Below, piece by piece: positions 13,610 through 58,289 of a DNA stretch of 64,000 bases (within the stretch, counting starts at the first letter, position 1; each line of letters begins with the position of its first letter). This stretch comes from Saccostrea echinata. Taxonomy: Eukaryota. The stretch covers positions 24,304,001 through 24,368,000 of the forward strand of contig NW_026889782.1 of the NCBI RefSeq assembly GCF_033153115.1. The letters are read 5' to 3'. A program made the translations under genes and the position numbers. The notes below the pieces were generated by a model, which was given only the letters and a program-made list of their open reading frames with translations, did not search any database and was not told the DNA's origin.

Positions 13610-14610
13610 TTGTCACAACAAATTGATGATGATGGTGAAACGCCGTTGTTTGTAATAGAGAAGAATGATACTTTGAAAGGTAGGAAAGGACAGTACTCCA
13701 TCAAGATGTCCTATTACAACAGGAAGGTCTACTTCCACATTCAAGTTAAGTTTAAAACCTTATTAAATGGAGTTTTGTTTTATGGTAATTTATCAAGAAA
13801 ACTTCGTCAATCAAAATTATCATGTACTTTGATACCCCCTTTTTTCTTTTATTTTCTAAAGTATGGATCCGTCACCATGTTAAACATTTACGTTTACCTA
13901 TTATATCATATATCCATTATTGAATTTTTGTTTGTTTGTTTTGTTTTTTTTTACGTCCCTCTCGATGTTTTCGCTCATATGGAGACGCTTCCACTTGCCG
14001 GTGGAGGACTGCAAATTTTGACCTATACTCGCCAGTCAGGGCCATTGAGCAATGAGGGATCTTTTTCGTGCCAGCATTTCCTGCGACACGGGACATCAGT
14101 TTATACGGTCTTATCCAAAGGACCGGTCTCCACGTCCCGCGGTGGGATTCGAACCCGCGACGTAAGGATCAACTCCTTACTCCGCGACTCTAGAGCCGAC
14201 GCTCTGCCATTTATTGAATTTAGATCAGATTAAAGTGATTATTAAGTTCCTGGCGAGGCTTTAACGTGGAATTTTAACACATTTCTTTTTTTCTGTTCCC
14301 CCCTGACAGATAATGCAAGTGGGACATCAACTTCCCTTCCTGAAGAGGTCTTGCTGGCGATGGCAGGTTTGAGAAAGATATTTCAGCAGTTAGAGTCCTC
14401 CAACGGTAAGTTTTCTTACATTTTGTCTTCATGTTTAAACGATGATATGGATAGCCGTTTAGATAATCCATACTGTTGATATACCTGTATCTCGAACAGG
14501 CAAAATTCCACAAGTGCTATCCGTTTTTTAATATAGCTGAGAATCACCGCGCCAAAAAAAGGAAAGTAACAATAACTGAATCAGATAACGAAGATGGGGG
14601 AACTTTTTAA
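13610..14610 (+). pseudogene. Spliced PC4-like (ssDNA-binding fold) pseudogene with SV40-type NLS ('gene B')
   Basis: Exon 1 reads DGETPLFVIE...GQYSIKMSYYNRKVYFHIQ (TTG start; donor apparently mutated to ttaagt). Exon 14310-14405 reads DNASGTSTSLPEEVLLAM. The exon from 14500 gives AKKRKV after removing one T from a T6 run. Confidence 0.5.
13926..14210 (-). mobile_element. tRNA-derived SINE family A
   Basis: Reverse complement of the 43130 copy, with B box GGGTTCGAATCCC and the Deu/Nin-like core. Confidence 0.88.
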
Positions 14611-28710: not shown

Positions 28711-29011
28711 TGATTGACTGATTGTATGTTGCTTAACGTCCCTCTTGAGAATTTTTCACTCATATGGAGACGCCACCACTTGCCGGTGGAGAGCTGCAAA
28801 TTTTGTCCTATACTCGGCACTTACGGTCATTGAGGTGTGAGGGATCTTTTTCGTGCCAGCACCTCCTGCGACACGGGACCTCAGTTTATACGGTGTCATC
28901 CGAAGGACCGGTCTCCACGTCCCACAGTGGGGTTCGAACCCGCGACGTAAGGATCAACTCCTTACTTCGCGACTCTAGAGCAGACGCTCTAACCACTGCG
29001 CCACGCAGACG
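28711..29011 (-). mobile_element. tRNA-derived SINE family A, full length
   Basis: A box TGGCGCAGTGG, B box GGTTCGAACC, Deu/Nin-like core, (CAAT/CAGT)n tail, and flanking CACAATA direct repeats. Confidence 0.9.
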
Positions 29012-30676: not shown

Positions 30677-31422
30677 ATGGCTGCCAAATCTATGACCAAG
30701 TGGAAATGCAGAGACTTAGAAACTCCTGGACAACATGGCCCTATAACGAAACGCTTATTCATTTATTTAGAAAACAATGACAAGATCTCAGACAATCAGC
30801 CTCTTCCAGCAATGAAACTAAAGCTTGACGATGACCAACGAGAACAGTTACTACTTTTTAAAGAACATTTATGCAGAAACTGGTACTTTGTCATTTCCGA
30901 GTATCAAGGGGAAACAAAGGTTCACTTGGGAGTGTATAGTATGAACAACGACAAAAAGATGGAACCCTGTATCCCACGAGAAAAGGAATATCCCTTGATC
31001 TAGAAAAATGGAAAAATCTGTCAGAACTATGCAGGGAAGATAAAGACGCCGCAATTGAACGCCACGAGGATTAAATGCCCGTCTCGTATAAAAGACATTT
31101 AGGAGAAAATTTCTATGTCACCATCAAAACAGGGTTTACCTTGATCAACGTAAGAAAAAGTTGGTGCCTTCAAAGAAGAAGGACATAGATCCGACAAGAC
31201 TTCGATTAGTGGGAAGAATTGAAATGTCTAATACCGCACGTAGAAGAAAAGACTGGACACCAGATACGAAAGGTGGAGTACTGTAAAAATTCGGAGAGCC
31301 ATCAAAATCAAATGGGATTCCTTCAGTGTCCCAGGTGCACACCACATGATGTTAAAAATATTGAAAAAGAAATGTCAAAGGCTTCATGGTACAGGGTATG
31401 TGCTATGTGTTTTATCATCTGA
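30677..31422 (+). pseudogene. Tandem-PC4-domain protein with a C-terminal C..HQNQ.G..QCPRC.P motif (Maverick/adintovirus-type accessory gene)
   Basis: Read across frameshifts and stops: KEHLCRNWYFVISEYQGETKVHLGVY...YPTRKGISLDLEKWKNL; YKRHLGENFYVTIKTG...WEELKCL; CKNSESHQNQMGFLQCPRCTP. TATAAAA at ~30609. Confidence 0.75.
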
Positions 31423-31949
31423 TTATAAGAACAGGAGTTTTGACAATAATGTATTTCATCTAAAATTCTGCAAAGTCACGACAAAAATAATCATATTTTT
31501 TTCCCATTGAAATACATAAACCTATATCAGAATTTACATGGGTATTGTACATAGAAATATATTATTTTAAAAAATCGATCAGTCAACTAAGTTATTGGTT
31601 TTCATAACTGATGTTTAGGTTTCATAACCAATATTTCATAAAGGTGCGTCCATACAATGTGAAAGTCTTCCAAGTCGTTGGTGTATTTCTGTACGGTACA
31701 TGTACTCCACTATAAAAGAAATTCGTGATTTTGAAGGTAATATCAACATTAGTTTAACAAATCTACACACGTCTATCTCGGTCAACTTTTTAAGAAAACA
31801 TACAGGGAACAAATACCCCCAATCACGATTATAAGAAACAAGGGAGGGGGATTATTATGAAATGAAGTATATCTAACCAAATTTTATCCTTCTACCACTT
31901 TGTTGGGGTGTGTGTAACATAAACGTACCGAGAGGAGCCTTTCTCGGAT

Positions 31950-32590
31950 AATGGTGATCTACGGAGGGTAGTTGCCAAGGGGATTCCCCCGGGAGCCGCG
32001 GACTTCATATTGCAACCCGATGTGGCCCGCGTTGTCGGGAACTGTCGGGCTAAGAATAGGATTACATGGGAGATCGGTCTGGATTACTCCGGATCGGCTA
32101 CTCAGAGATGCCCGAGGTTTGTCTTAGCGGAATTTTTCCGCCAAGTCAGTTTTAGTACTGGTATGATTTTGGTGGTTAGGGGACACGAGGATGATCCTTT
32201 AGGCCGAGTGCCCACTCAAGATTGTCTTACTTTACTGGATGGTATGTTTGTACCCACTTTGGTTCCGTTGTTCCTACGCAGTTTCTCGGGGGGGGGGGGG
32301 ATCGCAGCAGGGTAAGTGTTTGGTTGGATTCGGGTAGACCCGTGTTCTTCGGGATGAGCGGGCAGGTCTCTAGTATGTCAGAGGTCCAGTTGTCGGGTAT
32401 ACGTGCCATTCCTAACGACATGTTGGTTGAGTCGGATAGTCTGGATTCATCATGCGATGCCGGAAGTCCGATGTGCCCTCGGCACATTGGAGAAGTATAC
32501 AAGTTGGTGTACATACTTAGGGGGCAGGATGTCATCCTTCTTGCGGTAATGGTTTAACAAAACTTTAGAATGTTTTCGGGCCTCAGTTGA
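31950..32590 (+). pseudogene. tatD: TatD-family nuclease pseudogene at the 3' end of an LTR retrotransposon
   Basis: Collinear with TatD motifs: WEIGLDYS, ILVVRG, FLRSFSG, WLDSGRPVFFGMSG, GIRAIPNDMLVESDS, PRHIGEVYKLV, QNFR. Confidence 0.8.
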
Positions 32591-32996
32591 GGGGATCCTT
32601 GTAGTTTGCTTTTTGTTATAACCGGGATGACCAGATTTTGGTGTACCTTTTATCTATTTGTTGGTCGCACCGTAGATGTCGCACTTGATGTAGCAGAGCT
32701 TATCCATGGGTGATGTCAACGTTGGACCACGTGGTAGACGACAGGAGTCGGGAATCAACGAGATGCCACGTGGTGGACCGGGAAGACTCGGGGGGGGGGG
32801 ATTCTGACGAGTGATTGTGTTATGAACTGTGTTAAACTTATTATTATCCTATTATGGACATTCATGTTTAATTGAAATTGCTATTGTGTGCTTGTTTGTG
32901 TACATGTGTGGTAGGTCCTGCTAGGAATTAACTTACTTGATCATTTGTGTATTATAGATTGCCCCATTGCGTCGGGCTTGGACGCCCTCTTTTCAA

Positions 32997-33243
32997 AATG
33001 GGGAGGAATGTAGTGGACTTGGAAGTACCGGGCACGAATTGCCCTGCTACCTCCGGTCACGTGGTGCACTGCACACATTGTTTGACGTGTACCCGCATTC
33101 CTTCTCTCTTTTGACTTTTGCTGTTGTCTAGATCAGACACGCTGTTTTTGTAAGTCGTGATATCGTATTGTTTATAGGCGACTACTAGCTAGATAAAGGT
33201 GCGGATATTATAATATACTGTTGTTCTTGTTTCCGCCATCACA
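32997..33243 (+). mobile_element. PPT (AATGGGGAGGAA) and 3' LTR (33009-33243) of a TatD-bearing LTR retrotransposon
   Basis: PPT followed by TGTAGTGG...CCATCACA. The PPT plus TGTAGT is identical to that at 42883-42900 (minus). Confidence 0.7.
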
Positions 33244-33292
33244 TTTTATATATGTAGATTAAAAGAAAACATTATAAATCCGTTTAATTTTT

Positions 33293-33895
33293 TTAAAGAC
33301 CTCCGTCCCAGAGACATAATGATAAGTGCCATTCATTATGACGAATTGGACATGCCGTGTCCGTCCCCTTCCATACTGTAGAGGGCACGAATACCGCGGC
33401 CATGATGAGATCGTCCTCAATAGAAACGAGGACATCCCATTCGATTCCTCTTCTAGAGTTGACATTGGGAACCTGAAGTATACCCGGGATGAACGAGGGG
33501 TCAATCTCAAACATATCAAAGAAGATTAAAAAGAAGCACAAAAAGAAAAACAGGTGTCTCTTTGGAGTCACTCTCGTCACCCTGGCCAGTGCTTGAAAAA
33601 TTCATCCGTCGAGTTTCTGAAAAATCGAAGCTCTATATCCGACTTGCACTGCCGGAGAAATTCTCGTTCATATCACCCAATTCCTCTGTGGTATTACGCA
33701 ATACCAAAAAGGGAGCGCAAGACACCTTGACAATCGAGTCTGCGTGACCCTGGGTATAATCACCGAGGAACTCCTGACGTATGCCTACCTTCCGCATTTA
33801 GATAATATTTTGTAACAAACATTTACGTTGACAGTCCTTAGATGGGGAACGCCGTCTCGTACGTTAGTCCCAGCCACGATGAAGATTCTGTACAA
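33293..33895 (+). pseudogene. polB: Maverick/Polinton protein-primed PolB N-terminal fragment
   Basis: KDLRPRDI...HYDELDMP...IVLNRNEDIPFDSSSRVDIG...VCVTLG...LTYAYLPHL...MGNAVSYVSPSHDE, collinear with the 59010-60044 fragment. Confidence 0.7.
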
Positions 33896-36197: not shown

Positions 36198-39100
36198 TGT
36201 AAGAAGCTGCTGCCGTGTGGCGTAACGGAAAAAGTCAGTTTCAACTAGACTACATTTATTAGAACATGTAAACAAGCATGGCGTAAATTGTAAGCATAAA
36301 TTGAACATCGAACCCGATCAAATATTGTTACATAACCTTTTCCTTAGTTAGAATAGTATGGACAATGAATAAATTTATATTATGCTTAAAAGTGACTAGA
36401 ATCAAAACATCTGTACTGCTTTACTGAACTGACTAGCAAAAAATAACAATATGACTAGACACTGGACTATGAGTATTATATGCAAACTTGTAAAATGCAA
36501 CATCGATGAAATGAATTAAGCGTTCCTAGCTACACTAAACAAAATTATCTTGGCATCTACTCAAGTTAAATGTCTATCAACAAATCATGATCTGACATAG
36601 TCATTGTATTTAACCGGCGGTTTCACTTCACGTCCAGAACGGGTAACTGTGTTCTTAGGGTCAGTTACTGGCTTTGGAACATCGGGTGCCACTTCCTTGG
36701 CCTCATTTGTCTCACACGGAAGATCACACGGAATGTCTCTTGACACCGGCAATTCATTTGATTTACGCAAATGTTTTCTGTTTCTCGTATAGTTTGCTCC
36801 GGCCTCGGTCGTTACCTTGTATGATCTCCTTTCCGGTATTGCTTCCGTAACCGTTCCTTTCTCCCATGGTCTATTAGGGGTTTTGACTCGGACAGTCTCT
36901 CCAACTGATAGTTGCGATAATGGGTGTGCAGATCTGTTGTAATATTCTGCTTGTTTTTGTTTGGCATTGTCGATCTTCTCTTTCTCAAATGGTGCATCTT
37001 TCGGCTGTAATAACTTTCCTTTCGTGGGTAGTAGTGTTTTTGTTCTCCTTCCCATAAGTCTCATGACTGGACTGGTTCCCACATGCTGTGTAGGTGTGTT
37101 CCTGAAATCCAACAATGCAAGGTAAGGATCAGATTTTGCATGTTTTGCTTTCTTTAGAATTTGTTTGGCAACTTTCACTGCTTGTTCGGCTTTCCCATTG
37201 CTTTGTGGGTAGTGTGGTGAAGATGTTACGTGTTGGAATTCCCACAGTTGGGCAAACTTAGCAAATTCTTCGGAGGCAAATTGAGGACCGTTGTCCGACA
37301 CACACAGGTCTGGTATTCCATGTCTCGCGAATTGTGCTCGTAGTCGTTTGATGATCTCATGGGATGTCATTCTGTCCAAGGCATCAATCTCGAAGAAGTT
37401 TGAGAAGTAATCAGTTACTATCAAGTAGTTACGTTGGTCGAAAGTGAAGATGTCAAGTCCAAGCTTTGCCCAGGGACGTGGTGGTACCTCGTGATGTTGT
37501 AGAGGTTCTTTTCCTTGGTTGTTGTCAAAAGTGCGGCATGTTTCACACTTTTGTATGAAGTCCTTAACTTCAGCGTTCATTTGTGGCCAGTACACAGATT
37601 CTCTGGCTCGTCGTAGGCATCCCTCGATTCCAAGTTGTGATGAATGTATCCTTGTCAGCATATCCTTGCGTAGTGCTTGTGGAATAACTGCTCTGTCTCC
37701 TTTAAAAATGACTCCATTTTGGATAGACAGCTCATCTCTGATCTCAAAGTAGGGAACTATGAGTTCTGGAACTAAGGTTTTGCAGTCTGGCCACCCATTT
37801 CTGATGGATGCGCCTAAACTTTGCAGGGTATTATCCTTTGCAGTTTCGTCCTGAATGTCTTTCAAACGGTTTGGTGCAATTGGCAGGAATTGTAGCATAT
37901 TTATCGCTTCTACTACTGACTCCGCCTTTGATGGTTTCTCATTGGGCAGATACGCACGACTTAAGGTATCCGCTAGCTCCATGTTCTTTCCAGGACGGTA
38001 CTTAAGATTTACTTCATACTTTTGCATCCTGAGCAGCATGCTCTGGAGACGCTTTGGCGCTTTGTAAAGAGGCTTATTCACAATCATCTCCAAAGGTTTG
38101 TGATCTGATTGGACAGATACTGGTCTCCCAAATGTATAAACATTGAAACGTTCAAGCCCGAATATCACTGCTAGAAGCTCCTTTTCTATTTGTGCGTAGC
38201 GGGTTTCAGTTTCGGTCAGGGCACGGCTGGCAAAGGCAATCGGCTTGTCCTCTTGCAACAAAGCTGCTCCAAGTCCTTTCTCCGAGGCGTCGCATTGTAG
38301 TATTAGTGCCTTTTCTGGATTGAAGTACTGTAACACAGGATCTGCTGTGACTAGATTTTTCACTTGTTTTACAGCTTCGTCATGTTGTGGGGTCCAGTGC
38401 CATTCAACATCTTTCTGTGTTAACTTGCGCAGCGGCTCGCAGATGTCACTAAGCTTTGGTAAGAATTTTGCTAAATATGTCACAAATCCAATAAATCGTC
38501 GGACTCCTGCAACGTCAGTTGGATTTGGCATATCCAGGACTGCTTTGACCTTTTCGGGGTCTGCCTTGAGTCCTTTATTAGTGATCGTGTGGCCTATGAA
38601 TTTTACTTCGGACTGTCGAAATTTCATCTTGTCCTTATTGAGTTTGAGCTGCTGTTCTCTACATCTCATCATGAGTCTGACAAAGTTTCTGTCATGATCC
38701 TCTTGCGCTTCTGCTTCTGTGTTTCCTTCTCCAAACACCAGAATGTCATCATGTATACTCTTGACTCCAGGCAGTCCTTCCAGTGCTTGATGCTGGCGAC
38801 GCTGAAATTCCTCTGGCGCAGTGTTGATACCGAATGGCATGCGGAGCCAGCGGAATCTGCCAAACGGACTGTTAAAAGTAGTCATAAGAGAGCTTTCGTA
38901 GTCCAGACGAACATGCCAAAAGCCATCTTTGGCATCTAGGACGCTGAAGCATTTGGCATCTGACAAATCTGGCAAGATGTCCTCTATTGTAGGCATAGGG
39001 AAGTGCGCTCGCTGCAGTCCCTTGTTCAGGTCTTGGGGGTCTATGCAGACTCTGAGTTTTCCACTTGGCTTCCTTGCTACAACCAAGCTGGAGACCCAAG

Positions 39101-40844
39101 GTGTAGGCTCAGTAACTTTGGCTAGAATTTCCAGTTGTACGAGTCTCTCCAGTTCCTTTTCTAAGTCATTCTTGATTGCGAGTGGAACTTTCCGTGGAGC
39201 ATGAACAACTGGTTTGACACTCGGATCAATCTGGAGGCTGTAATCTCCTTTCAGGTGTCCTAGGCCAGTAAACACATCATGGTATTCTCTGCAAATGTTC
39301 TCCTTTGTCAATGGTTGTTTTCTCACATTGATTTCAAGGATGTTTTCGTTCTTGACCGTGATCAATTTCAAGGCTTGTGAAGCTTTGGAACCAAGTATTG
39401 GTTGACACGAGCCATCCAGTATGACGAAATCCGCTTTGTATTTTTCTCCGTTCTTAGGATTTTTGAATTTTAGGTTGCACTTGCCCAGAGGTTTGATTGT
39501 CGTGTTGTTATACATGCTGAGTATTTGGTCTGTCTCTGTGATTGCATTGTTATCTGTCAAATACTTTCTTGGGAGTATGTTGCAGGTCGCCCCACTGTCC
39601 ACTTGAAATTTCACGTACTGTCCGTTGACCGACAAGGTGGCAAATACCTTGTTTACAGAAGCTTGGTTAATTGCATTTACTGACTCGCTGTTGTTTTTGA
39701 GATCTACACTATATATAGAAAAGTAATCATCAGAGTCTGATTCGGCACTCTCTTGGATTTGATGGACTGTTGACTTGGCGGAATTGCAGACATTTTCAAA
39801 GTGATGAAGTTTGCGACACTTCCTGCACTGATGGCCATAGGCTTTGCAATTTCGCTTTCCTTTGGCGTGGCGACTTCCACAGTACTTGCATTGACTAGGT
39901 TCTTGTCTCGCTTGTACCTGTTGCTGTGGTTTCTGGGACTTTTGTGGCTGTTTCTTGAAGCTCTTCTTGTGCGAGTTGACTGCATGCACAGATATTCCTG
40001 CAGCCTGTGGTTGAATTTCCTTGTTCTGCTCCTTGGAAACTTCAGTGGCTCTACACACATGAATGCATTTCTCCAAGTCTAAATCGGCCACACGTAGAAG
40101 CCTTTCTCGCAGCCCAGAATCACTTACGCCACAAACAATTCGGTCTCTTATCATTGAGTCTTTGAGAGTTCCAAAATTACAAGTGTCAGCCAAAATTCTA
40201 ACTTCTGCTAAGAATTTGTCAAATGTGTCACCTGTCTGCTGGTTTCGACTGTAGAATTTGTACCTCTCGACTGTTTCGTTTTTCTTGGGATCACAGTGTT
40301 TGTCAAATTCTGCGAGGATGAGTTTTACAGTAATATTTTTCTCTTCCATATTCACTTTGTTCCCATGCTCATCGGTAGTTTGAAACTGCATCGTGCTATG
40401 GATTTCTCTCCCCTTGCGTCCCAGAAGATACAGCAAGAGTTTCACCTTTTGTGGCTCTGGTTTTTTTCTCCATGCTGATATCTATGTAGAGTAACACCTC
40501 TTCCTTCCATTTCTTCCAGGTCTGAGAAAGATTTTTAGCATCGAAATCCATTGTTTCGGGCGGATGAAGTACGTTTTCCATTGTTGTCGATTTTGGCGCG
40601 CTCTCGAACAATAACAAAGGAAAATGTCAATTTGTCTCTAATTGTGGCTGGTTACACAATGTTTTCCATCCCCGTACTCACTAATAATGGTCCGACACTT
40701 CTGACACCATGTAAGAAGCTGCTGCCGTGTGGCGTAACGGAAAAAGTCAGTTTCAACTAGACTACATTTATTAGAACATGTAAACAAGCATGGCGTAAAT
40801 TGTAAGCATAAATTGAACATCGAACCCGATCAAATATTGTTACA
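36198..40844 (-). mobile_element. Full-length Ty3/Gypsy LTR retrotransposon (Mag-like)
   Basis: Identical 135-bp LTRs (36198-36332 and 40710-40844); 5-bp TSD GATGT; PBS TGGTGTCAGAAGTG (tRNA-Leu type, 40696-40709); PPT at ~36335-36345. Confidence 0.97.
36585..40581 (-). CDS. gag-pol: Gag-Pol polyprotein (two Zn knuckles, PR, RT, RNase H, IN) with a 1-nt frameshift at the T7 run 40461-40467
   Basis: CKYCGSRH/CRKCRKLHH, VDSGA, IHDDILV, CDAS, SDNGPQF, QSNGKAE. The upstream frame MENVLHPPETMDFD...WKKW joins if one A is removed. Confidence 0.95.
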
Positions 40845-41422: not shown

Positions 41423-43087
41423 TATTTCTCTGGTCAGCAGTCGTGTTAACACAATCCTTAAAGGGCTATATTGTTCCTTCCATTTATCCCTCAATGGCTA
41501 TTGGGCAATATAATCAAGCTTCCTAGCAAAACTGATTTTGAATAAAGTCTAGAAAATTCTAAGAAGCTTATATCTGTAAAAACTTTTCATAAAAAGACGA
41601 CACGACACACAGTCTAATAAATAACTGCAATGACTGTGATCTTGGACCGATAAAAAATCGTATCAGAGAAAGGAAAATCACTGTCCTCAGTCACACCTTT
41701 AGTTATTAATCATAAGCCAACAAAACAATATCATCTCCTAACCCCCCCCCCCCCCCCCATTTCCAGTTAAATCTTTTCTAATTCTTTAATCTTGGTGTTA
41801 GCCCTTCCTAAAACATTGTTTTTTAAACCTAAGGTTTTGTAAAATCCTCATATCAGTTTGATCTTTTATACAGGCGTTTTCTTTTTTAAATTACCTGAAT
41901 ATGTAGATTACCGGAGTTTTCTATTACTGTTCAATCTTGCGTAATGACATAAAAAAGAGGCATAACATGGGGACTACGAAATGATTTTGTTTCTAAAATA
42001 TGAATTTAAATCCATTTATGTTATTTACATACATTTATGTATAAAAAAAAAGTTATAATTGTGATATCACTGTGATTTTTGATATCTCACATAGAACGCC
42101 ATAAAAATTAATTTATGCTGTAAGGAACAATAATACGGAAACGATAACTCCGTGATTTAATTTTGCATTTATGTTTAAATATTATCCCAAGATAAGTCAT
42201 ACTGAGATTATTCGATCCTCAAAATTGACTAGCTAAAGTGTACGCAAATCTCGAACTCAAAGGACGGCGTAGTTAAATGTCGGGGTTGACCTACAATTTC
42301 TGCCACCTGGGGCCCGTTTTACAAAAGAACTTACGACTAAGACCAAAAACTTTTATTGATTACAAAATTTTGCAAAATTAATTATTCCGTTTGAAATTGC
42401 TAGCATAAAAATAGCTTGTAAAATTACGTGCTTAATTGTCTGGTAGACAATTAAGCACGTAAGGAAAAATGGCGGAGGTACCTACACCACTCTATACAGA
42501 GCGGCTGAGTCACTTTTGTCTACATTCTAAAAACCCACACCAATGTGTTTATCGGTACTGTCGTGTTACCAAGTTAACATTGGTTACTATAACTCACAAT
42601 AGAGTAAAAAAGGCTAGCGTCTTACCTTAAACAGGCGACAGCATACATGGTTAATAAATATGGGATGAGTCCGGGCATACATGAACAATAACAACACACA
42701 AACAATACGTAGACAGGAAAACAGGTAAACGTGTTCTTAGTTAGACATCAGGACTATGACTGCAGCTTCAGTATGCCTAATACGAAGCATCACATGACAT
42801 GCCCAGTAAGCGGGAAGACCAGAGTCACAGGTCATGTACACAGAGAGTTGGGAAAATACAATAAGATATAAAACCTAATTTTACTACATTCCTCCCCATT
42901 CTGTGTTAAAGGACTTGATTATAGCACAATATATATATATATGATTCAGGGAATCAAACAGTGTTAACAGGTCGAAACAATATTCATACCTATGGTAACA
43001 ATGAGTAATTATAAACATTCCACAAAAATTTGGTCGGAAAATATCTAGACCTAAAATTCTGCAGAAACCGTCATTTGTTTGGAACAG

Positions 43088-44823
43088 CTAACAGTTTTTA
43101 ACATTATACAGTCGACGACTATTCTGGACGTGGCGCAGTGGTTAGAGCGTCTGCTCTAGAGTCGCGGCGTAAGGAGTGGGACGTGGAGACCGGTCCTTCG
43201 GATGAGACGGTATAACCCGAGGTCCCGTGTCGCAGTAGGTGCTGGCACGAAAAAGATCCCTCACTGCTCAATGGCCGTAAGTTCCGAGTATAGGACAAAA
43301 TTTGCAGCTCCCCACCGGCAAGTGGTGGCGTCTCCATATGAGTGAAAAATTCTCGAGAGGGACGTTAAACAACATACAAACAAACAAAAACTATCCTGGA
43401 CTGTCTGTTTCAGAAGTTGCTGTATGGGAACTTGTAGCTTTGCTGCAACGAGGCTAGCAACATCACCAATGAATCCTGGAGTGTTGGTATCTCCACCTCC
43501 TGGTTTCATATCTGTAGAATCTGTTTCCAGAAGAATTCGGTTCGAAGGAACGAACTGAAGGCCTGCAGTTTGGTCAGCACTTCAGTTCTCAACATCGCCA
43601 GTGAAACCAAAACGAACATTGGAGTAGCTGTTCATCCATTCCTGGACCAACTCCGTGTCTCCCATAAAGCAGTGGACAAGAATAGGCTGATCGTACTCGC
43701 AAAACCTCTGTAGAATCTGATGCAACATGCGTGCACATCCATGCCAATCCTGTTTGAAGGGGTTCCTCTCAGATGTAAAATCAACACCTTGTCTTTACGT
43801 ACAAGGGAGAATGCTTTCCGAAAAATATCTTCCTGGTGTCTCCACAGCTTTACAGGAACCGTACGATCCAAACCAATTTTCCCTAAACCATCAATACATG
43901 GCGAATCCAGTAAATTCTTCTTTTGGTGATATCTCTCCTCTGTGAGTTCGTCAGCATGTTTTGGATGTACGCCCAGGGCTATACCAAAGGGTCCACCAGG
44001 ATGCAAGTATTCTGGATGTGTTGAGGGCTCACTGTAAATAATCACACCTCGTACAAGTGTCACATGTAGATTAGGCTGACGCTCACTCTGATTGGAGTAG
44101 GATAGAATATCGTCCAGGGACTTTCCAAAGGAAAAGGGGCGTCTCCAGATTCGAGAACAGGTCCTGTCCAGATGGAAATGACTATCAAAGGCCTCGTCTG
44201 CAGTTGGACTGGTTTCATACACTTATCGCATGATGTTAACATCAGAATGGTTAAAAGTATGGTACGGGTTGACGTGGGATCTCTGCGTCGGAACCGTAGC
44301 TGACATCATCAACTGTAAACTCATCCTCTGTAGACGAATCCACGGTAGGGACCTAAACATCCTCTGTGTTTGGAGCAGATGATGTGTCGACTGTAACACG
44401 TCCATGTGCACGAAATTCTTTGGGCTGCAAAAGTGACAATAGGGCAACCAAACATCTCCAGTGAAAGAGAGCAGCTGCGGAATTGATTGGTGACAGCTTG
44501 AATCCCTCAGAGGGTTCTGTCCGTCCCTAATAAGAAAGAGTCTCTTCATGAACGTAACCGTGTCCGGATGTACAACTGCATTTGAAGGAATCATCTTTGA
44601 GGAGTTCAAGTAGTCGACCGCTGCAAATAACTCTGCATGATGTCCTAATGCACTGAGACGTTCCATCGTTGAGAAGAGCCAGATCGTACACTAGTCTCTT
44701 TGGATCGACTAAACTTCTCGATGATGTACTTCTCCTCACAAAGTCGACATAATGTTCACCTCGTTCCTGACGAATAGTTCTATTTGACCTCTCTGTTTTC
44801 CATGATCTCTTATAAGATGCCAT
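43088..44823 (-). pseudogene. tatD: TatD-family nuclease with a long N-terminal extension; stops, frameshifts and a SINE insertion
   Basis: AFDSHFHLDR, IALGVHPKHA, GLGKIGLDRT, QEDIFR, LILHLRG, NVRFGFTG, RILLETDS, NTPGFIGDVA, QNSRRLY. Confidence 0.92.
43130..43390 (+). mobile_element. tRNA-derived SINE family A with the B box deleted, inserted in the TatD ORF
   Basis: 11-bp TSD CTAT(T/C)CTGGAC, A box TGGCGCAGTGG and (CAAA)n tail. Confidence 0.92.
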
Positions 44824-45499: not shown

Positions 45500-47290
45500 G
45501 TGATCCTTCTCTTCCAAGGGCCACATTCATCTTCATGATGGACTTCATGTCAGAGTTTACTGAAACTCTGTTACTTTCTTCTACATCTCCGACTCTGTGC
45601 ATGATGTACTTGCACTCTGCACTCTACGCTAAACCAATCCTTTCTGGTAAGGTCTGCTCTGGTGATTCTGGTGATTCTGATTCCTGTGTTGGCAGAGCTT
45701 AAGTCGTCTGTCATATCACTGTCTGCTTCTGTTTTACGCCATAAGCTGCAGAGAATGAACCTCCTCGACTTTCAGTGGCACCAACAAAACCAAACCAGTC
45801 TCTGTTGAACATGTCCATTTCTTTGGCATCAACAGCACATATTTCAAGTTCCTCTTGGTCATTGGTGATATTGTTCCTTAGTTCTTTCTGGTCAATGGTT
45901 GTACAGTCCTTTATTACCTCTGCATATGCGAGAGTTTCTGGGTTTGGCTCTGGTAACATCTCTTTGGACTTATATCTTGTGTACGTATGTGATGTAAGAC
46001 TCTTTTCATTGAGACTAATTGGGTCCCCTGAAGATTCTTAATGCTCATCACTTCCCCTGTTCTTGTCAAAGTGATGAACCACATCTTCTTGTTGAAAGTA
46101 TGGTGATATTATGACAGAGAGTTTATCCAGGCCGTCAGGCATACTGTAAGACCTAATTAGAGGGTTCTTGTTCCTCTCTTGTCTTTTAATTTGCTCCAAT
46201 TGTGTCTGGACTGGATGAGGAGTAGACATCTTTGTGGAGCTGGGTTTTGGTTCATTATTGTACAGGCCTTCCACCTTCTTTGGTTTTTGTAAAGATGTAG
46301 ATTGTTTATCGCCATCCTCTCCAATGGGACAACCATTATCATCTCCTCTTCAGAATATATTACTCAAGTGTGATTTGAGTTCCTGCTTGCCAGTGCCAGA
46401 TGACTTTCTGTTTCACTGAAGTAATCTCCATTGATTCATCTATATCTGGTGAAGGGATATTGATGTCTGATGTCAATCTCTTTGGTTGAGGACACAAGTT
46501 CTGCTTTTTTACCACATTCCCAGAGAAATCATCAGCTGTCTTAGTCAACTCACTTCTGCAGACAAAACTGACATCTTCACTGGCATTCCATTTCATTCTC
46601 AAAGACGTGAGGTGGGTAGCTGGAACCTCCATGACAGAACTGCCATCAGAACACCTGGAAGCTGAGTCAGAGGAGTCTAAACTGGATTTAGATGTTTCAA
46701 ATGGATTGTCATATTGGCCTCTGACTGGGAGATGAGAGATACTAGTACTTACATTCAAGCTTCCACTGGGTAGCTGCACATTGTTCGGCATTTGACCCTT
46801 AGGTGGAGCCAAGTGGATAATATCCCGTTCACCTGACGGTAATGAACCACCCAGTGATCGGAATGTTCCCATAACTTGTTCAGGAGTCATGGATGCCTGC
46901 ATACTCTGAACACTTAACGATACCGAACCGCCTAGTGTTTGAGTATACATTCCTCCCCATACAGCAAAATGGCTGTTGCCCTCCATGGAAACATAAGTCA
47001 GGTTCAGTCTTCATTGCCATTGATGGTAAAACAGTTGGCTGATTTAGACCGGCTTGACCATGTAACCCACATTGAGGAAATGGTGGCATGCATTGGGGAT
47101 ACTGTGGGCAAGGCTGGTAAGGTCCGAAGCTGTACATACCATAAGGCACCATGGGATGCACATATGGTGGTATCATTCCCCACTGATTTGGATATCCACT
47201 ACTGGGTGGATAAGGGGACGTATGTGCCTGAGGGTATGACACGCTACTACATAAAGTGTAAATGCCTGGTTGCATTGCAGTCGTATTTGT
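45500..47290 (-). pseudogene. Degraded long low-complexity ORF (Pro/Tyr/Gly-rich, then Ser-rich) inside the TatD LTR element
   Basis: Overlapping minus-strand ORFs 46880-47275, 46360-46986, 46038-46274 and 45711-45959 with raised GC; no gag or pol motif recognised. Confidence 0.55.
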
Positions 47291-47296
47291 TTAAAG

Positions 47297-48368
47297 TGTA
47301 ACGATCGCTCCCCCCTTTTTCATGTGTTATAATGTGTTGAATGTCAAGCATCGTTATGTTATTAATTACACGTTTGTTGATCGTTTACGTGTACATACAT
47401 AGTTGTAAAGTTGTACGGTAATTTATGATTACCTCATGATTACCTTAATTGTCGTGTGAACGATGTATTTTAGCATCTTTCAGCACACGTGTTTTCCGTA
47501 ACTTCTGCCGCCGCCATACTTTGTTTACTTGTGTATTTTCCCATGATGCTTCACGGTGTATTGATCTATTTTTACCGTAGTTATTTTGGCGGAAGATTTG
47601 ATTGTAGATTCTGTTTAATTAAATGTTAAATGTGCTTTTAAAGTGTAAACTTATATTTTAATAATTTATTTACGTATTGTAATAATTTTATATACGATGT
47701 ACGAGAGCGAGATTTCATTACGGGATGATAATTATGTATGATTGGCTAATTATTAATTACGGGATGGAATTATTAATAATGATTGGTTATTATTGCGGGT
47801 TTTGGAAGTTCTATAAATACACAGACGCTGAGTATCGGGTGCTCTCTCGTTTCCTTTGCGTCCTAAAGAAAGGTCGCCAGATTTATTTGTCCAGATTAAG
47901 GTGTGTACTATTTCAGTATATATATATGTGACTGAAGTACATATGTAGTGCTAGGCTTAATTAATATTACTAGTCATTGTGCTAGTTTCATTTATTTTTA
48001 CTAGTTAAGAACTAGTTATTTCTATTCTCTTTAAGAGTTAGGAAATATTTCTGCTGTGTGCTAGTAGTTGAACTAGTAGCGGGAATATTTATTTGTAAAT
48101 TTAGTCATTTATAGGGAGCCTTTCCGTTTTAGTTTGGTCGGGGGAATTTATATATGAATGTTATACTGGAAATAGTGCCAGTTTATATCCGTCCGTATCA
48201 GTAGTTGTACTGATTTTTGTCTTTTGTCCCAAGGGTTGAGACTTGTCAATTTTACACACTGTTACTCATTTTCGCTGTTGAACTACCTCAATAAATTATA
48301 AACTTTATTTAGCGACTTGGTTTTTATTCCTAGCATTTGCGGGAGTGTTTGACATCCGAAGCGTTACA
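47297..48368 (+). mobile_element. Solo LTR (~1.07 kb)
   Basis: TGTAACG...CGTTACA termini; TATAAATA at ~47812; AATAAA at ~48290; flanks AAAG / ATAG (imperfect TSD). Confidence 0.7.
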
Positions 48369-48754: not shown

Positions 48755-49640
48755 CCAGAAGTCTCTGATGAGACTGTAGCTCTACTGGTCTGTACATATA
48801 ACAAAGAAAAAGTAGCACTTGGATTTGAAACTTTGCAACACGCAGCAATAAATAGAATAATGTATCTTAATGTAGTGTACTTGTGCGCCAAGTAATATTG
48901 AAATCAGACCAAAACTAAAGGAGGAGTAACGTTTTAAAGGATTTTCACAGAAATTTCTATTTTTAGTAACCATGGCAACACTGTTCATTGAAATCAAAAG
49001 CCGATGCACTAAATTATGTATCTTAGTGTAGTCTACTTGTGTGCCAAGTTATATTGAAATCAGACCAAAACTGAAGGAGGAGTAGTGTTTTAAAGGATTT
49101 TCACAGAAATTTCTATTTTTAGTAACCATGGCAACATCGTTCACCAAAATCAAAAACTGATGCACTAAATAATGTATCTTAGTGTAGTCTACTAATATGC
49201 CACGTTATGTTGAAATCAGACCAAAACTGTAGGAGGAGTAGCGTTTTAAAGGATTTTCACAGAAATTTCTATTTTTAGTAACCATGGCAACACCGTTCAT
49301 CGAAATCAAAAACAGATGCACTGAATTAGGTATCTTAGTGCAGTCTACTTATTTGCTAAGTTATACTGAAATCAGACTAAAACTGTAGGAGGAGTAGCGT
49401 TTTAAAGGAATTCACAGAAATGTCTATTTTTAGTAACCATGGCACCACCATTCATCGAAATCAAAAACCGATGCACTAAATGTATCTTAGTGTAGTCTAC
49501 TTGTGTGCCACGTTATGTTGAAATCAAACCAAAACTGTAGGAGGAGTAGCGTTTTGAAAAATTGTTTACAGACAGACGGACGGACTACGGACACCTTACT
49601 ATCGCATAAGCTCTTCTGGTCTCTGACCAGTAGAGCTAAT
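48755..49640 (-). mobile_element. Helentron with a 156-bp satellite array
   Basis: subTIR AGCTCTACTGGTC at both ends; (GACG/GACA)n; monomers at 48901, 49057, 49213, 49369 and 49521; palindrome GTCTC-tgat-GAGAC. Confidence 0.9.
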
Positions 49641-50858: not shown

Positions 50859-52469
50859 TATTTTGCAATGTTGTAACTAGTGCTTTAATAAATAAATTGG
50901 AATGATAAAGGAACAGTTACCAATATACACAAGTAATAATATGTTCCAGTTTATTTATGAAAATTTCAATTGTAAAAAATTCAGAAAATTGCTTAGATGT
51001 TGTAGGACTAACAGTATTAAATACTGTGAGCAGTAATAGAGCAAATAAACTTTATAAAATAAACTTTACTTAATGTATATTAGTTTAATAAAGTTTTATT
51101 TCTCTTTGAAAATCTTCCAGAAAGCAAAACCGGATATTTAACAGACAATTACATTAAATATTGCGCCAAAACGTGAAAAAATGGCGTCCGACAAGACGAG
51201 TGACAAGAAAACAAAATGTCGAAAAAAATTCAAAAGCTATTCTAGAGAACAAATTAACAAAATTATCGCATCAACATTTATAAAAACGCCTGAAAACGAT
51301 AATATATACAAAAAATATACAAAATATCTATCAAATATATAAAAAATGCAGATGATATCACCCACGTGTTCATTGAAAACACGAGTGACAAGGAAAAATA
51401 TTAATTTGACACAAAAAAGTACGTAGGCGTGCAAAAAATATCACACACAACGTTTATTGAAATGCATGTGTAAGAAAATGTTGAAATATAGCAAAAATAT
51501 GACAAATTGTCGCACACAACGTTTTCTGAAAACTCACGTGTACGAAAATACGAAGTTTCAAACCTATGCGAAAGTACACAACGTTTATTTAAACGCTCGT
51601 GTACAAATATGTAATTGCTAAAATATAGCACACAACGTTTAGTAAAACGCACGTGTACTAGTTTCAAAGAAAAACAGTAGTTTATTTACAAACATTTCAC
51701 GACAAAAGGTTAAATAGACATGGCCGAATTGTTGGAACCTCGTGCTTCAACGTTTAAACAACGCCCGTGCACGACGAGTTTCCGTAAAAAGTGTCACAAA
51801 ATGACCGTGAATAATTTAACAGAATTTGGTAAATACCGAGTTGACCCGTGATGCCAAAATTGTAGTCTACAGCAATCGTACTAACGTTAAATTAACACCC
51901 GTACGACAAATTAATCTACTCAGTAATTTGCAGAAAAGTAGGACTATCCTACCCGCGACGCCAATTGTCGTGTAACCGAGTTAATATTGGTTACTATAAC
52001 TCACAATAGAGTAAAAAAGGCTGGCGCCTTACCGTAAACAGGCGACAGCATACATGGTAAATAGACATGGGATGAGTCCAGGCATACATCAACAATAACA
52101 ACACACAAACAATACGTAGACAGGAAAACGGGTAAACGTGTTCTAAGTTAGACATCAGGACCAGGACTAAAGCTTCAGTACGCCTAATACGGAGCATCAC
52201 GTGGCATGCCCAGTATGCGGGTAGACCAGGGTCAGAGGTCATGTACACAGAGAGTTGGGAGAATACAATAACATGTAAAACCTAATTTTACTACAGTACC
52301 ATTAGCAATTAATAGTAATCTATTATGAATGTAAATTTGTTCATCTTCAAACAAAGTTATATTGTGGAAAAATATTAGGAAAAAAAAATTTCATCAGTAT
52401 AGAAATATATACTTTGATTATTTACGTAATTAGCAGTCTGAAATGAAATGGATATAATCTGAATCAGCC

Positions 52470-53852: not shown

Positions 53853-54151
53853 AGATTGATTGACTGTATGTCGTTTTACGTCCCATTTGAGAATTTATAT
53901 ATACTCATATAGAGACGTCACCATATACCGGTGAAGGGCTTCAAATATTGACCTTTACTCGGCACTTATGCCATTGAGCAGCGAGGGATCTTTATCGTGC
54001 CAACGCCTGCCGTGACACGGGGCATTGGTCTCGAAGGTCTCATCCGGAGGACCCGCAACTTTCACTTCAAAGTGCCGAGCGCATGGCGAAGGAACAGTTG
54101 CTTTCATTTTATATCGACTTAGGTCAGTCGCGGCCGAGATTCAAACTCATG
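53853..54151 (-). mobile_element. SINE family B (5'-truncated)
   Basis: Same Meta-like middle as the 27160 copy; the same Deu/Nin-like core and tail as family A. Confidence 0.85.
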
Positions 54152-57188: not shown

Positions 57189-58289
57189 TATTGATGAGTG
57201 CTATGCAACTGCATCAACATTTTTGACCTTGACCTTATTTTTCTTAAATTAATGTTTAGCTCAGTTTTAAAGATACCATTCAAGGCAGTGTAATCAAAAT
57301 TCATGTGTTGATACATACTGATGTGAGCTATTCAACTGCATCCACATTTTTCGACCTTGAGCTTTCCTTTGACCTTGACCTCACTTTTCTTAAATTTGTG
57401 TTTAGCTCAGTTAATACAGTGTTATCAAACTTCATATGTTGATACATACTGATGAGAGCTATTCAACTGCATCACCATTTTTTGACCGCCACATTCCTTT
57501 GACCTTGACCTCACTTTTCTCTAATTAGTGTTTAGCTCAGTTTTAATGATACCATTCAATACAGTGTTATCAAACTTCACATGTTGATACATACCGATAG
57601 GAGCTATTCAACTGCATCAACATTTTTTTTACCTTGACCATTCCTTTAACCTTGACCTCACTTTTCTTAAATTAGTGTCACACTTCATATGCTGAGACAT
57701 ACTGATGTAAGCTATTCAACTGCATTATAATTTTTTGACCTTGACCTTTCCTTTGACTTCACTTTTCTCAATTTGTGTTTAACTGAGATTTAAAGAAAAC
57801 ATAATATTTTTATCAAAATTCATATGATAATACATACTGATGTAACCTTTTCAACTGCATCAACATTTTTTGACCTTGACCTTTCCTTTAACCTTAATTC
57901 ATTTATCTTGAATCAGTGTTTAGCTCAGTTTAAAATAAACCATGCAAAGTACTTTTATCAAACTTTAATATGCTGATACCTATTTGTGGGAAGTATTTAA
58001 CATTTGACCTTGAACTTTCCTGTAACATTGACCTCACTTTTCTTAGGTTTGCATTTTGCTTAATTTTAAAGAAACCATTTAAGATATATTTATGTAAGTT
58101 TATGCACTTATACATAATTTGGTGAGAATATATCATCTCGTATATCCAACTTTTTAGATTTCAATTTCAATTCTAAAGAAACTATTCAAGATATTCTCAT
58201 CAAATTTTATACACTTATTCAAATTAACATGTTGCATTAGTAATATACCCTCGGCGTGGCATTCATGTCCTATGGACATAGTTCTAGTT
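57189..58289 (+). mobile_element. 5'-truncated Helentron with degenerate ~120-145 bp repeats
   Basis: TGACCTTGACC-rich monomers; 3' ATGTCC-tat-GGACAT palindrome plus TTCTAGTTT. Confidence 0.8.

Follow-up and report, generated by a model that had tools for sequence, protein, structure and literature searches.

The locus designated copy B, which lies in the 64-kb stretch of DNA analyzed here (the window), preserves, in decayed form, the 3′ end of a Ty3/Gypsy-type LTR retrotransposon, made up of an ORF3, a trailer, a polypurine tract (PPT), and a probable LTR. We consider it likely that B is a Gypsy-type remnant from a group of elements with a TatD ORF3 and a common origin, an assessment that covers identity and common origin and not mechanism. 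This group of marine-invertebrate LTR elements, with a TatD-type ORF3 as the third gene, is widespread and apparently undescribed.

Copy B and its PPT/LTR junction

The features of copy B are as follows.
31896..32604, + strand: ORF3 remnant with a TatD-like TIM-barrel domain, 5′ part missing (from tblastn of P0001 and motifs)
32605..32996, + strand: 3′ trailer between ORF3 and PPT, about 390 bp
32997..33008, + strand: PPT AATGGGGAGGAA, identical to the PPT of element A
33009..33243, + strand: probable 3′ LTR, TGTAGT...CATCACA, 235 bp (from its place after the PPT, its termini, and a drop in GC)

When the Saccostrea gene model P0001 was compared with B by tblastn, it matched at 81% over residues 25 to 155 and at 56% over residues 135 to 251. 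Homology begins at about 31896, in the middle of the domain and without the first barrel strand, and this onset replaces the start at 31950 proposed in an earlier, sequence-only reading of the locus. The four peptide motifs named in that reading were all recovered on the + strand (WEIGLDYS, 32067-32090; VFFGMSG, 32342-32362; IPNDMLVESDS, 32408-32440; HIGEVY, 32483-32500). They are split over two frames, one giving way to the other within 13 consecutive G at 32288-32300, and the ORF is broken further by stops at 31920 and 32555 and by another frame change near 32575. A search with the 5′ half returned three matches among 232 candidates, all of them Saccostrea proteins with PF01026 (84, 70, and 59% identity). 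By themselves, the halves of B matched no Pfam family, no PDB sequence, and, by tblastn, nothing in element A, so we assign B to TatD because its relatives P0001, P0002, and P0003 carry PF01026 (37-65 bits with a gathering cut-off of 27; 54-75% identity to B). Each of these three represents one single sequence. In the trailer, one frame near 32770-32812 resembles by eye the C-terminal tail of P0001.

The sequence AATGGGGAGGAA occurs exactly twice in the window, at 32997 (+) and at 42900 (−), and in B it directly precedes an LTR that starts with TG. That B and element A have the same PPT/LTR junction, as had been proposed, was borne out: 18 exact nucleotides are shared, and resampling the downstream region 2000 times under a dinucleotide model gave no shared word longer than 15. 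The B junction is also identical at 20 of 22 bases to that of the intact element L004, and the distance from ORF3 to PPT (about 390 bp) falls inside the range found for A, L002, and L004 (190-650 bp). These observations all speak against the reading of B as a host gene, decayed or domesticated, with a PPT/LTR likeness by chance, which the lack of a second LTR, gag, pol, and target-site duplication in the window might favor and which we find hardly credible. The PPT junction word recurs a third time, over 15 nt, within an ORF inside element A (46946-46960, −), where it is either a central PPT or due to chance.

The right end of the B LTR was placed from the TG...CA termini, an end like that of element A (CATCACA vs CACGACA), and a fall in GC from 0.38 to 0.15. 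The LTR bodies of A and B are not similar, as had been noted (local score 21, reached by 44 of 200 shuffles), and alignment of the two trailers was at chance level. The sequence-only reading had made its case depend on LTR-like copies of 33009-33243 elsewhere; within the 64-kb window, to which this comparison extended, there is no second copy.

Neither an upstream domain nor gag, pol, a primer-binding site (PBS), a second LTR, or a target-site duplication was found for B within the 64-kb window, and the region upstream of B gave no gag or pol match by Pfam or by tblastn of the L004 gag and pol. Since gag and pol are absent, we file B as a remnant only and not as a complete element. Decayed ORFs flank B on both sides (30677-31422, +, and 33259-33815), with no Pfam or PHROGs identity; the part at 30677-31003 recalls what we take to be PC4-like genes of Polinton-type elements, with no Pfam or PHROGs support. 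Copy B may sit inside another mobile element.

Element A and an intact relative

The second TatD-bearing copy in the window, element A, has the following features.
51966..52295, − strand: 5′ LTR, 330 bp (matches the 3′ LTR in 302 of 330 aligned columns)
51946..51963, − strand: PBS TGGCGTCGCGGGTAGGAT, 2 nt past the 5′ LTR
43084..44823, − strand: ORF3 remnant with the N-terminus, part of the upstream helical domain, and the TatD domain (PF01026, E 4e-10)
42889..42900, − strand: PPT, identical to the PPT of B
42559..42888, − strand: 3′ LTR, which pairs with the 5′ LTR

Paired LTRs, PBS, PPT, and target-site duplication (GTAC on both flanks) are thus all present. The PBS, which is presumably tRNA-Ser-like, has similar counterparts in L004 and L002. 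ORF3 of A has suffered an internal deletion, stops, frame changes, and the insertion of a SINE (43130-43389, flanked by a 12-bp duplication with one mismatch), past which the ORF tail continues; five pieces of it are 49-67% identical to Saccostrea P0008. Searches of A with Pfam, PHROGs, and the L004 proteins detected neither gag nor pol, and A is a decayed or non-autonomous copy. The gag/pol place is occupied by several ORF remnants of 103-216 codons (45500-47290, −), one of them rich in Pro, Tyr, and Gln, which gave no Pfam, PHROGs, or L004 match. A segment of about 1.07 kb inside A (47297-48368), which has the termini TGTAACG...CGTTACA and occurs only once in the window, is probably a solo LTR of another family.

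The DNA of the window is eukaryotic, AT-rich, and repeat-rich; since the proteins nearest to B come from Saccostrea oysters, the host is probably an ostreid oyster. The window contains a young, compact Gypsy element without TatD (36198-40844, −; identical 135-bp LTRs, a GATGT duplication, and a 1298-codon gag-pol frame), whose pol and that of L004 are 31% identical across RT/RNase H. A tRNA-derived SINE is present at 43130-43389, 28714-29010, 13959-14205, and 53970-54102, the head of one copy being tRNA-Ser by ARAGORN, and short satellite-like arrays, their units roughly 130-170 bp long, lie at 10028-11030, 48856-49563, 57204-58065, and 263-1474. An Rfam search over 28-54.5 kb of the window found nothing.

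A GTDB scan with the alignment of A-type relatives yielded six loci from 26 pattern matches. The four strong loci (L001-L004) are on contigs in Sedimenticola bins and are probably animal DNA co-binned with bacteria; L005 and L006 are from Acidobacteriaceae (E 2e-4 and 4e-4). L001-L004, together with P0049 and P0051, are eukaryotic-type retrotransposon DNA in bacterial bins annotated as "TatD family hydrolase." L004 is intact, in the order LTR-PBS-gag-pol(PR-RT-RH-IN-PHD)-ORF3(TatD)-PPT-LTR, with an LTR pair identical at 209 of 216 positions and a contig that ends inside both LTRs. Its gag carries zf-CCHC, PNMA, and Retrotrans_gag, and its pol a protease, RVT_1, RNase H, Integrase_H2C2, rve, and PHD. 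ORF3 begins 30 bp past pol, has 716 codons (PF01026, E 1e-34), and is followed by a trailer of about 650 bp up to the PPT. Within 1743-9085 of L004, we also observed a weak helix-hairpin-helix at the N-terminus of gag (E 0.003), the PHD finger at the end of pol, and, separating RNase H from integrase, a Cys-rich segment along with a short tandem repeat.

LTR context was seen at three of the four strong GTDB loci, clearly in L004 and L002 and weakly in L001, where the junction is weaker; the contig of L003 ends too soon. L002 has an RT piece upstream of ORF3 and a PPT, LTR, and PBS downstream, and L003 a pol PHD tail (70% to L004) 5′ of ORF3. In L002 (2560-2930), the PBS directly follows the post-ORF3 LTR, as in tandem elements with a common LTR. 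Of 165 proteins compared with L004 pol, two gene models, P0035 from Mytilus edulis and P0017 from Magallana gigas, join pieces of L004-type pol to TatD. When 6250 candidates were searched for long gag-pol-TatD fusions (1555-4440 aa), the one match was the host Mercenaria protein, and no pol domains were present in 30 scanned ORF3 proteins (27 long element-class and 3 B-clade), which fits TatD as a separate ORF. LTR context was shown for none of the named mussel, clam, and sea-urchin proteins, and no member of the B clade was seen beside a pol gene.

Relationship of A and B within the family

Relatives of the element A TatD numbered 52 among 519 candidates, with lengths of 346-1176 aa, and the 18 that are labeled by organism come from Saccostrea, Crassostrea/Magallana, Mytilus, Mercenaria, Dreissena, Strongylocentrotus, and Diadema, plus two bacterial-bin labels. 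In the longer members (500-1500 aa), ORF3 consists of a disordered N-terminus, a C2H2-zinc/helical domain of about 140 aa (pattern CxxxxC..H..H plus a helical part), a linker, and a Group II (HxH) TatD domain. Their TatD domains score 46-128 bits against TIGR00010, with a cut-off of 206, and carry the family-private motifs AFDSHFHLDR or DxHWHP. With a profile of three B relatives, a search of 1.84 billion protein representatives yielded 542 clusters (50% identity) at E ≤ 0.001. Among the best 150 of these 542, 144 were new, and of the new ones 126 were nearest to A-type, 18 nearest to B, and none nearest to the single host reference. One of the 18 B-nearest matches, P0195, was rejected as a repetitive false positive.

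The domain upstream of TatD is common to relatives of both window copies. Its B-clade and A-type versions align by hhalign at 98.5% (E 2e-15); it was recognized in five of five B-clade proteins at 9-35 bits, with 100 shuffles at no more than 3.9 and the host protein at −0.9, and in 43 of 46 element-class matches of at least 500 aa. From window copy B itself this part has been lost. The domain is modeled at pLDDT 89.9. A structure search over 48,161 chains gave a best hit of only Z 3.5 (rmsd 3.8, 69 aligned), Foldseek found nothing in PDB and BFVD at E 0.001, and an Atlas feature search gave matches below 0.9, with C2H2-like leads, or none. The model thus has no clear structural match, from which a new fold does not follow.

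The window proteins A and B are identical at 50 of 216 positions (23%), about the same distance as separates each from YcfH (22-25%). The main tree comprised 38 rows (30 element-type, 1 host from Mercenaria, and 7 bacterial or phage; LG+G4 without mixture), with host sampling of one TATDN2-like protein and no TATDN1/3; QatD, Tritonibacter, P0146, short B fragments, and most 50%-cluster matches were excluded. The TATDN2-like label of the Mercenaria protein is our assignment from its motif and length. The 30 element-type rows, including both window copies, formed one clade (95/98), which was sister to the Mercenaria host protein (100/99 against the seven bacterial/phage rows), and the B clade (100/98) was nested within the element clade on weak branches. 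A 68-row quick tree agreed, save for the long-branch P0146, which grouped with cellular TatDs. In AU tests, placement of B with the host was rejected (p-AU 0.004), and placements of B with bacteria (0.155), outside the other element rows (0.19), and as sister to the branch of A (0.26) were not.

The sequence-only reading would have failed had the two TatD proteins derived from unrelated clades; they fall in a single clade (95/98), with the AU tests rejecting only one alternative placement. A scenario in which TatD entered this slot twice, independently and from different cellular donors, would accord with the low identity of A and B, with the B-with-bacteria and B-outside trees, and with the thin outgroup sampling. 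We nonetheless judge it very unlikely, given an upstream domain that is common to both and missing in the host protein, and a B-only profile that returned element-type proteins first from 1.84 billion (best 150 of 542, with 0 of 144 new matches nearest host). The common upstream domain is stronger independent evidence for the unity of A and B than the tree.

Another reading accepts one origin and lets ORF3 pass as a mobile module from one element family to another (an "ORF pool"), in which case its presence in two diverged families would be no proof of vertical retention. The accessible account of the DEDDy ORFs of bdelloid retroelements provides a precedent (PMC5408684), deep branching among the element TatDs is poorly resolved, and window copies A and B carry no RT. 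On the other hand, the PPT/LTR junction and PBS type common to A, B, L004, and L002 (B being without a PBS in the window) suggest one element lineage, as do four ORF3-linked pol pieces that all resemble L004 pol and not that of the window's unrelated Gypsy C, and we regard swapping as unlikely.

Taken together, the single clade, the upstream domain in the relatives of both copies, and the architecture of L004, an intact Gypsy with ORF3 between pol and the same PPT junction, uphold the proposal that the TatD is a family trait and not a one-off capture.

Active site, possible function, and known systems

Across 126 unfiltered matches with a mean identity of 35%, conservation at eight active-site positions is 92-99% (75/76, 71/75, 100/103, 107/113, 113/119, 121/126, 122/126, and 116/126 covered rows), and 26 of the 276 columns of this alignment reach 90% identity. 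For the family, this pattern argues for purifying selection on catalysis. B belongs to a deep sub-clade with the DxHWHP motif and, inside it, to an oyster branch in which several metal-site His are gone. In copy B, the metal-site Glu and Asp are kept and three His positions are occupied by Pro, Val, and Arg, the HxH being in the missing part; P0001 and P0002 have non-His residues at the same three positions, and P0003 lacks three other His (Leu at the first) plus the final Asp. Ligands were lost separately in P0067 and P0108, and all are kept in P0057 and P0061. We do not file B as an active Group II TatD nuclease because several of its metal-site His are absent; to judge from these replacements, its oyster branch is probably a pseudo-nuclease. 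The earlier claim of long-term retention under selection therefore stands for the family, by virtue of its active-site conservation, and is not shown for the B sub-branch, where several metal-site His are lost.

The TIM-barrel fold of TatD is kept in the B clade, as modeled for the relative P0003: AlphaFold gives its barrel with high confidence, and the model superimposes on YcfH (1yix) with E 2.8e-11 and an rmsd of 3.3 over 277 columns. If ORF3 in this oyster sub-branch were free of selection, as decaying cargo, the loss of three His from P0001, P0002, and B and of three others and the final Asp from P0003 would be expected, and the three named relatives are one sequence each. Against this, the same replacements recur in at least two Saccostrea species among copies with 55-75% identity, P0001-3 have 89 invariant columns, and the P0003 barrel is confidently modeled; together these look like a fixed change followed by continued constraint, and we consider free decay somewhat unlikely.

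How the protein would act is a separate matter. We propose that a host TATDN2-like domain was captured once, long ago, into the ORF3 slot and would have been kept because it benefits the element. Human TATDN2 strips the RNA strand from R-loops (PMC10711561), Group II TatDs are 3′-exonucleases and AP endonucleases (PMC10085689), and TatDs act on RNA and ssDNA (PMC10085689, PMC10711561). By analogy, ORF3 could be an auxiliary metal-dependent nuclease on the element's own RNA:DNA hybrids, either R-loops at the transcribed element or reverse-transcription intermediates, a role that we rate at a little short of even. The zinc/helical domain may bind nucleic acid or a partner, and any function of ORF3 in the B branch would be that of a non-catalytic binder.

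As the main rival, next in likelihood, ORF3 could be an anti-silencing effector that degrades or binds piRNA/siRNA or their precursors, with the degenerate branches as RNA-binding decoys. Metal-site residues were lost separately in two B-clade branches in which long ORFs are still open (P0003, 627 aa; P0067, 800 aa), piRNA pathways have the inactive-nuclease RNA binders Maelstrom and EXD1 (PMC5408684, as far as accessible), and the use of RNA and ssDNA by TatDs also fits. Such an action would be a better account of retained dead variants than processing of the element's own intermediates, but the upstream domain matches nothing known, and we hold this role to be doubtful. A fuller scenario, which is tentative and which we lean against as a whole, is that a TATDN2-like nuclease was taken up a single time by an old Gypsy lineage, which is spread over molluscs and echinoderms and fused it to the zinc/helical domain, with ORF3 as an effector against R-loop- or small-RNA-based host control and at least two branches, B included, now being catalytically dead binders.

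On present sequence evidence, the family would represent a new class of accessory protein for animal LTR retrotransposons, with natural active-site-intact and dead variants to compare, and it touches the question of why some env-less Gypsy elements retain enzymatic third ORFs. Its size (542 clusters, with nearly all of the best 150 element-type) suffices for tests of selection and of tree congruence. Where bivalve and sea-urchin genes carry the annotation "tatD" or "metal-dependent hydrolase," many are probably retrotransposon ORFs, and a TatD ORF of this kind in a bacterial genome bin is probably a sign of host DNA. A TATDN2-labeled gene is shown among the non-Hox genes of the giant squid Hox cluster in a figure legend (PMC6962438), and we would guess that it could be an element ORF3.

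Our search of titles and abstract beginnings found no paper describing TatD in retrotransposons; Repbase and Dfam entries and subscription journals, which lay outside it, may hold earlier annotation. In the accessible portions, the main text of a survey of mollusc LTR elements (PMC6238403) does not contain TatD, ORF, or PHD, and the accessory domains listed in PMC6338049 do not include TatD.

The closest precedent in the accessible literature is the Juno/Vesta LTR elements of bdelloid rotifers, in which ORF3 encodes a DEDDy exonuclease or a GDSL esterase (Rodriguez, Kenefick, Arkhipova 2017, PMC5408684). Like these, the TatD elements are Gypsy-like, have an enzymatic ORF3 in the env position with 3′-5′ nuclease-type cargo, and carry copies nearer to each other than to cellular homologues. 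Unlike them, they encode a TIM-barrel TatD and not an RNase-H-like DEDDy protein (no DEDDy-type family was among the Pfam matches of the scanned ORF3 proteins, the fold being TatD), have an extra C2H2/helical domain fused in ORF3, and have named relatives that span bivalves and sea urchins, whereas bdelloids are one class. For Juno/Vesta, no significant departure from neutrality within genomes is described in the accessible part of that study (PMC5408684).

Compared with the Group II (HxH) TatDs TATDN2, TATDN3, and E. coli YcfH, as presented in the available text of PMC10085689 and PMC10711561, the element proteins have PF01026, a predicted YcfH-like fold, and, in most family members, the HxH and other active-site residues, and their C-terminal TatD domain behind a long N-terminal region recalls TATDN2. 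They differ in being element-borne and below the TIGR00010 cut-off, in their private motifs and upstream domain, and, in the B branch, in the absence of several His ligands. QatD of the QatABCD anti-phage system belongs to a bacterial defense operon according to the accessible text (PMC13434339), unlike the element TatDs, which score 25-60 bits against NF041926 (cut-off 230); QatD fell outside the element clade in the 68-row quick tree. CopiaMBD, to go by the portion available (PMC6673714), is likewise a host-derived domain retained long-term by one retrotransposon lineage, although there a methyl-CpG reader with demonstrated binding resides in a Copia family, and here a predicted nuclease is encoded by a separate ORF in Gypsy.
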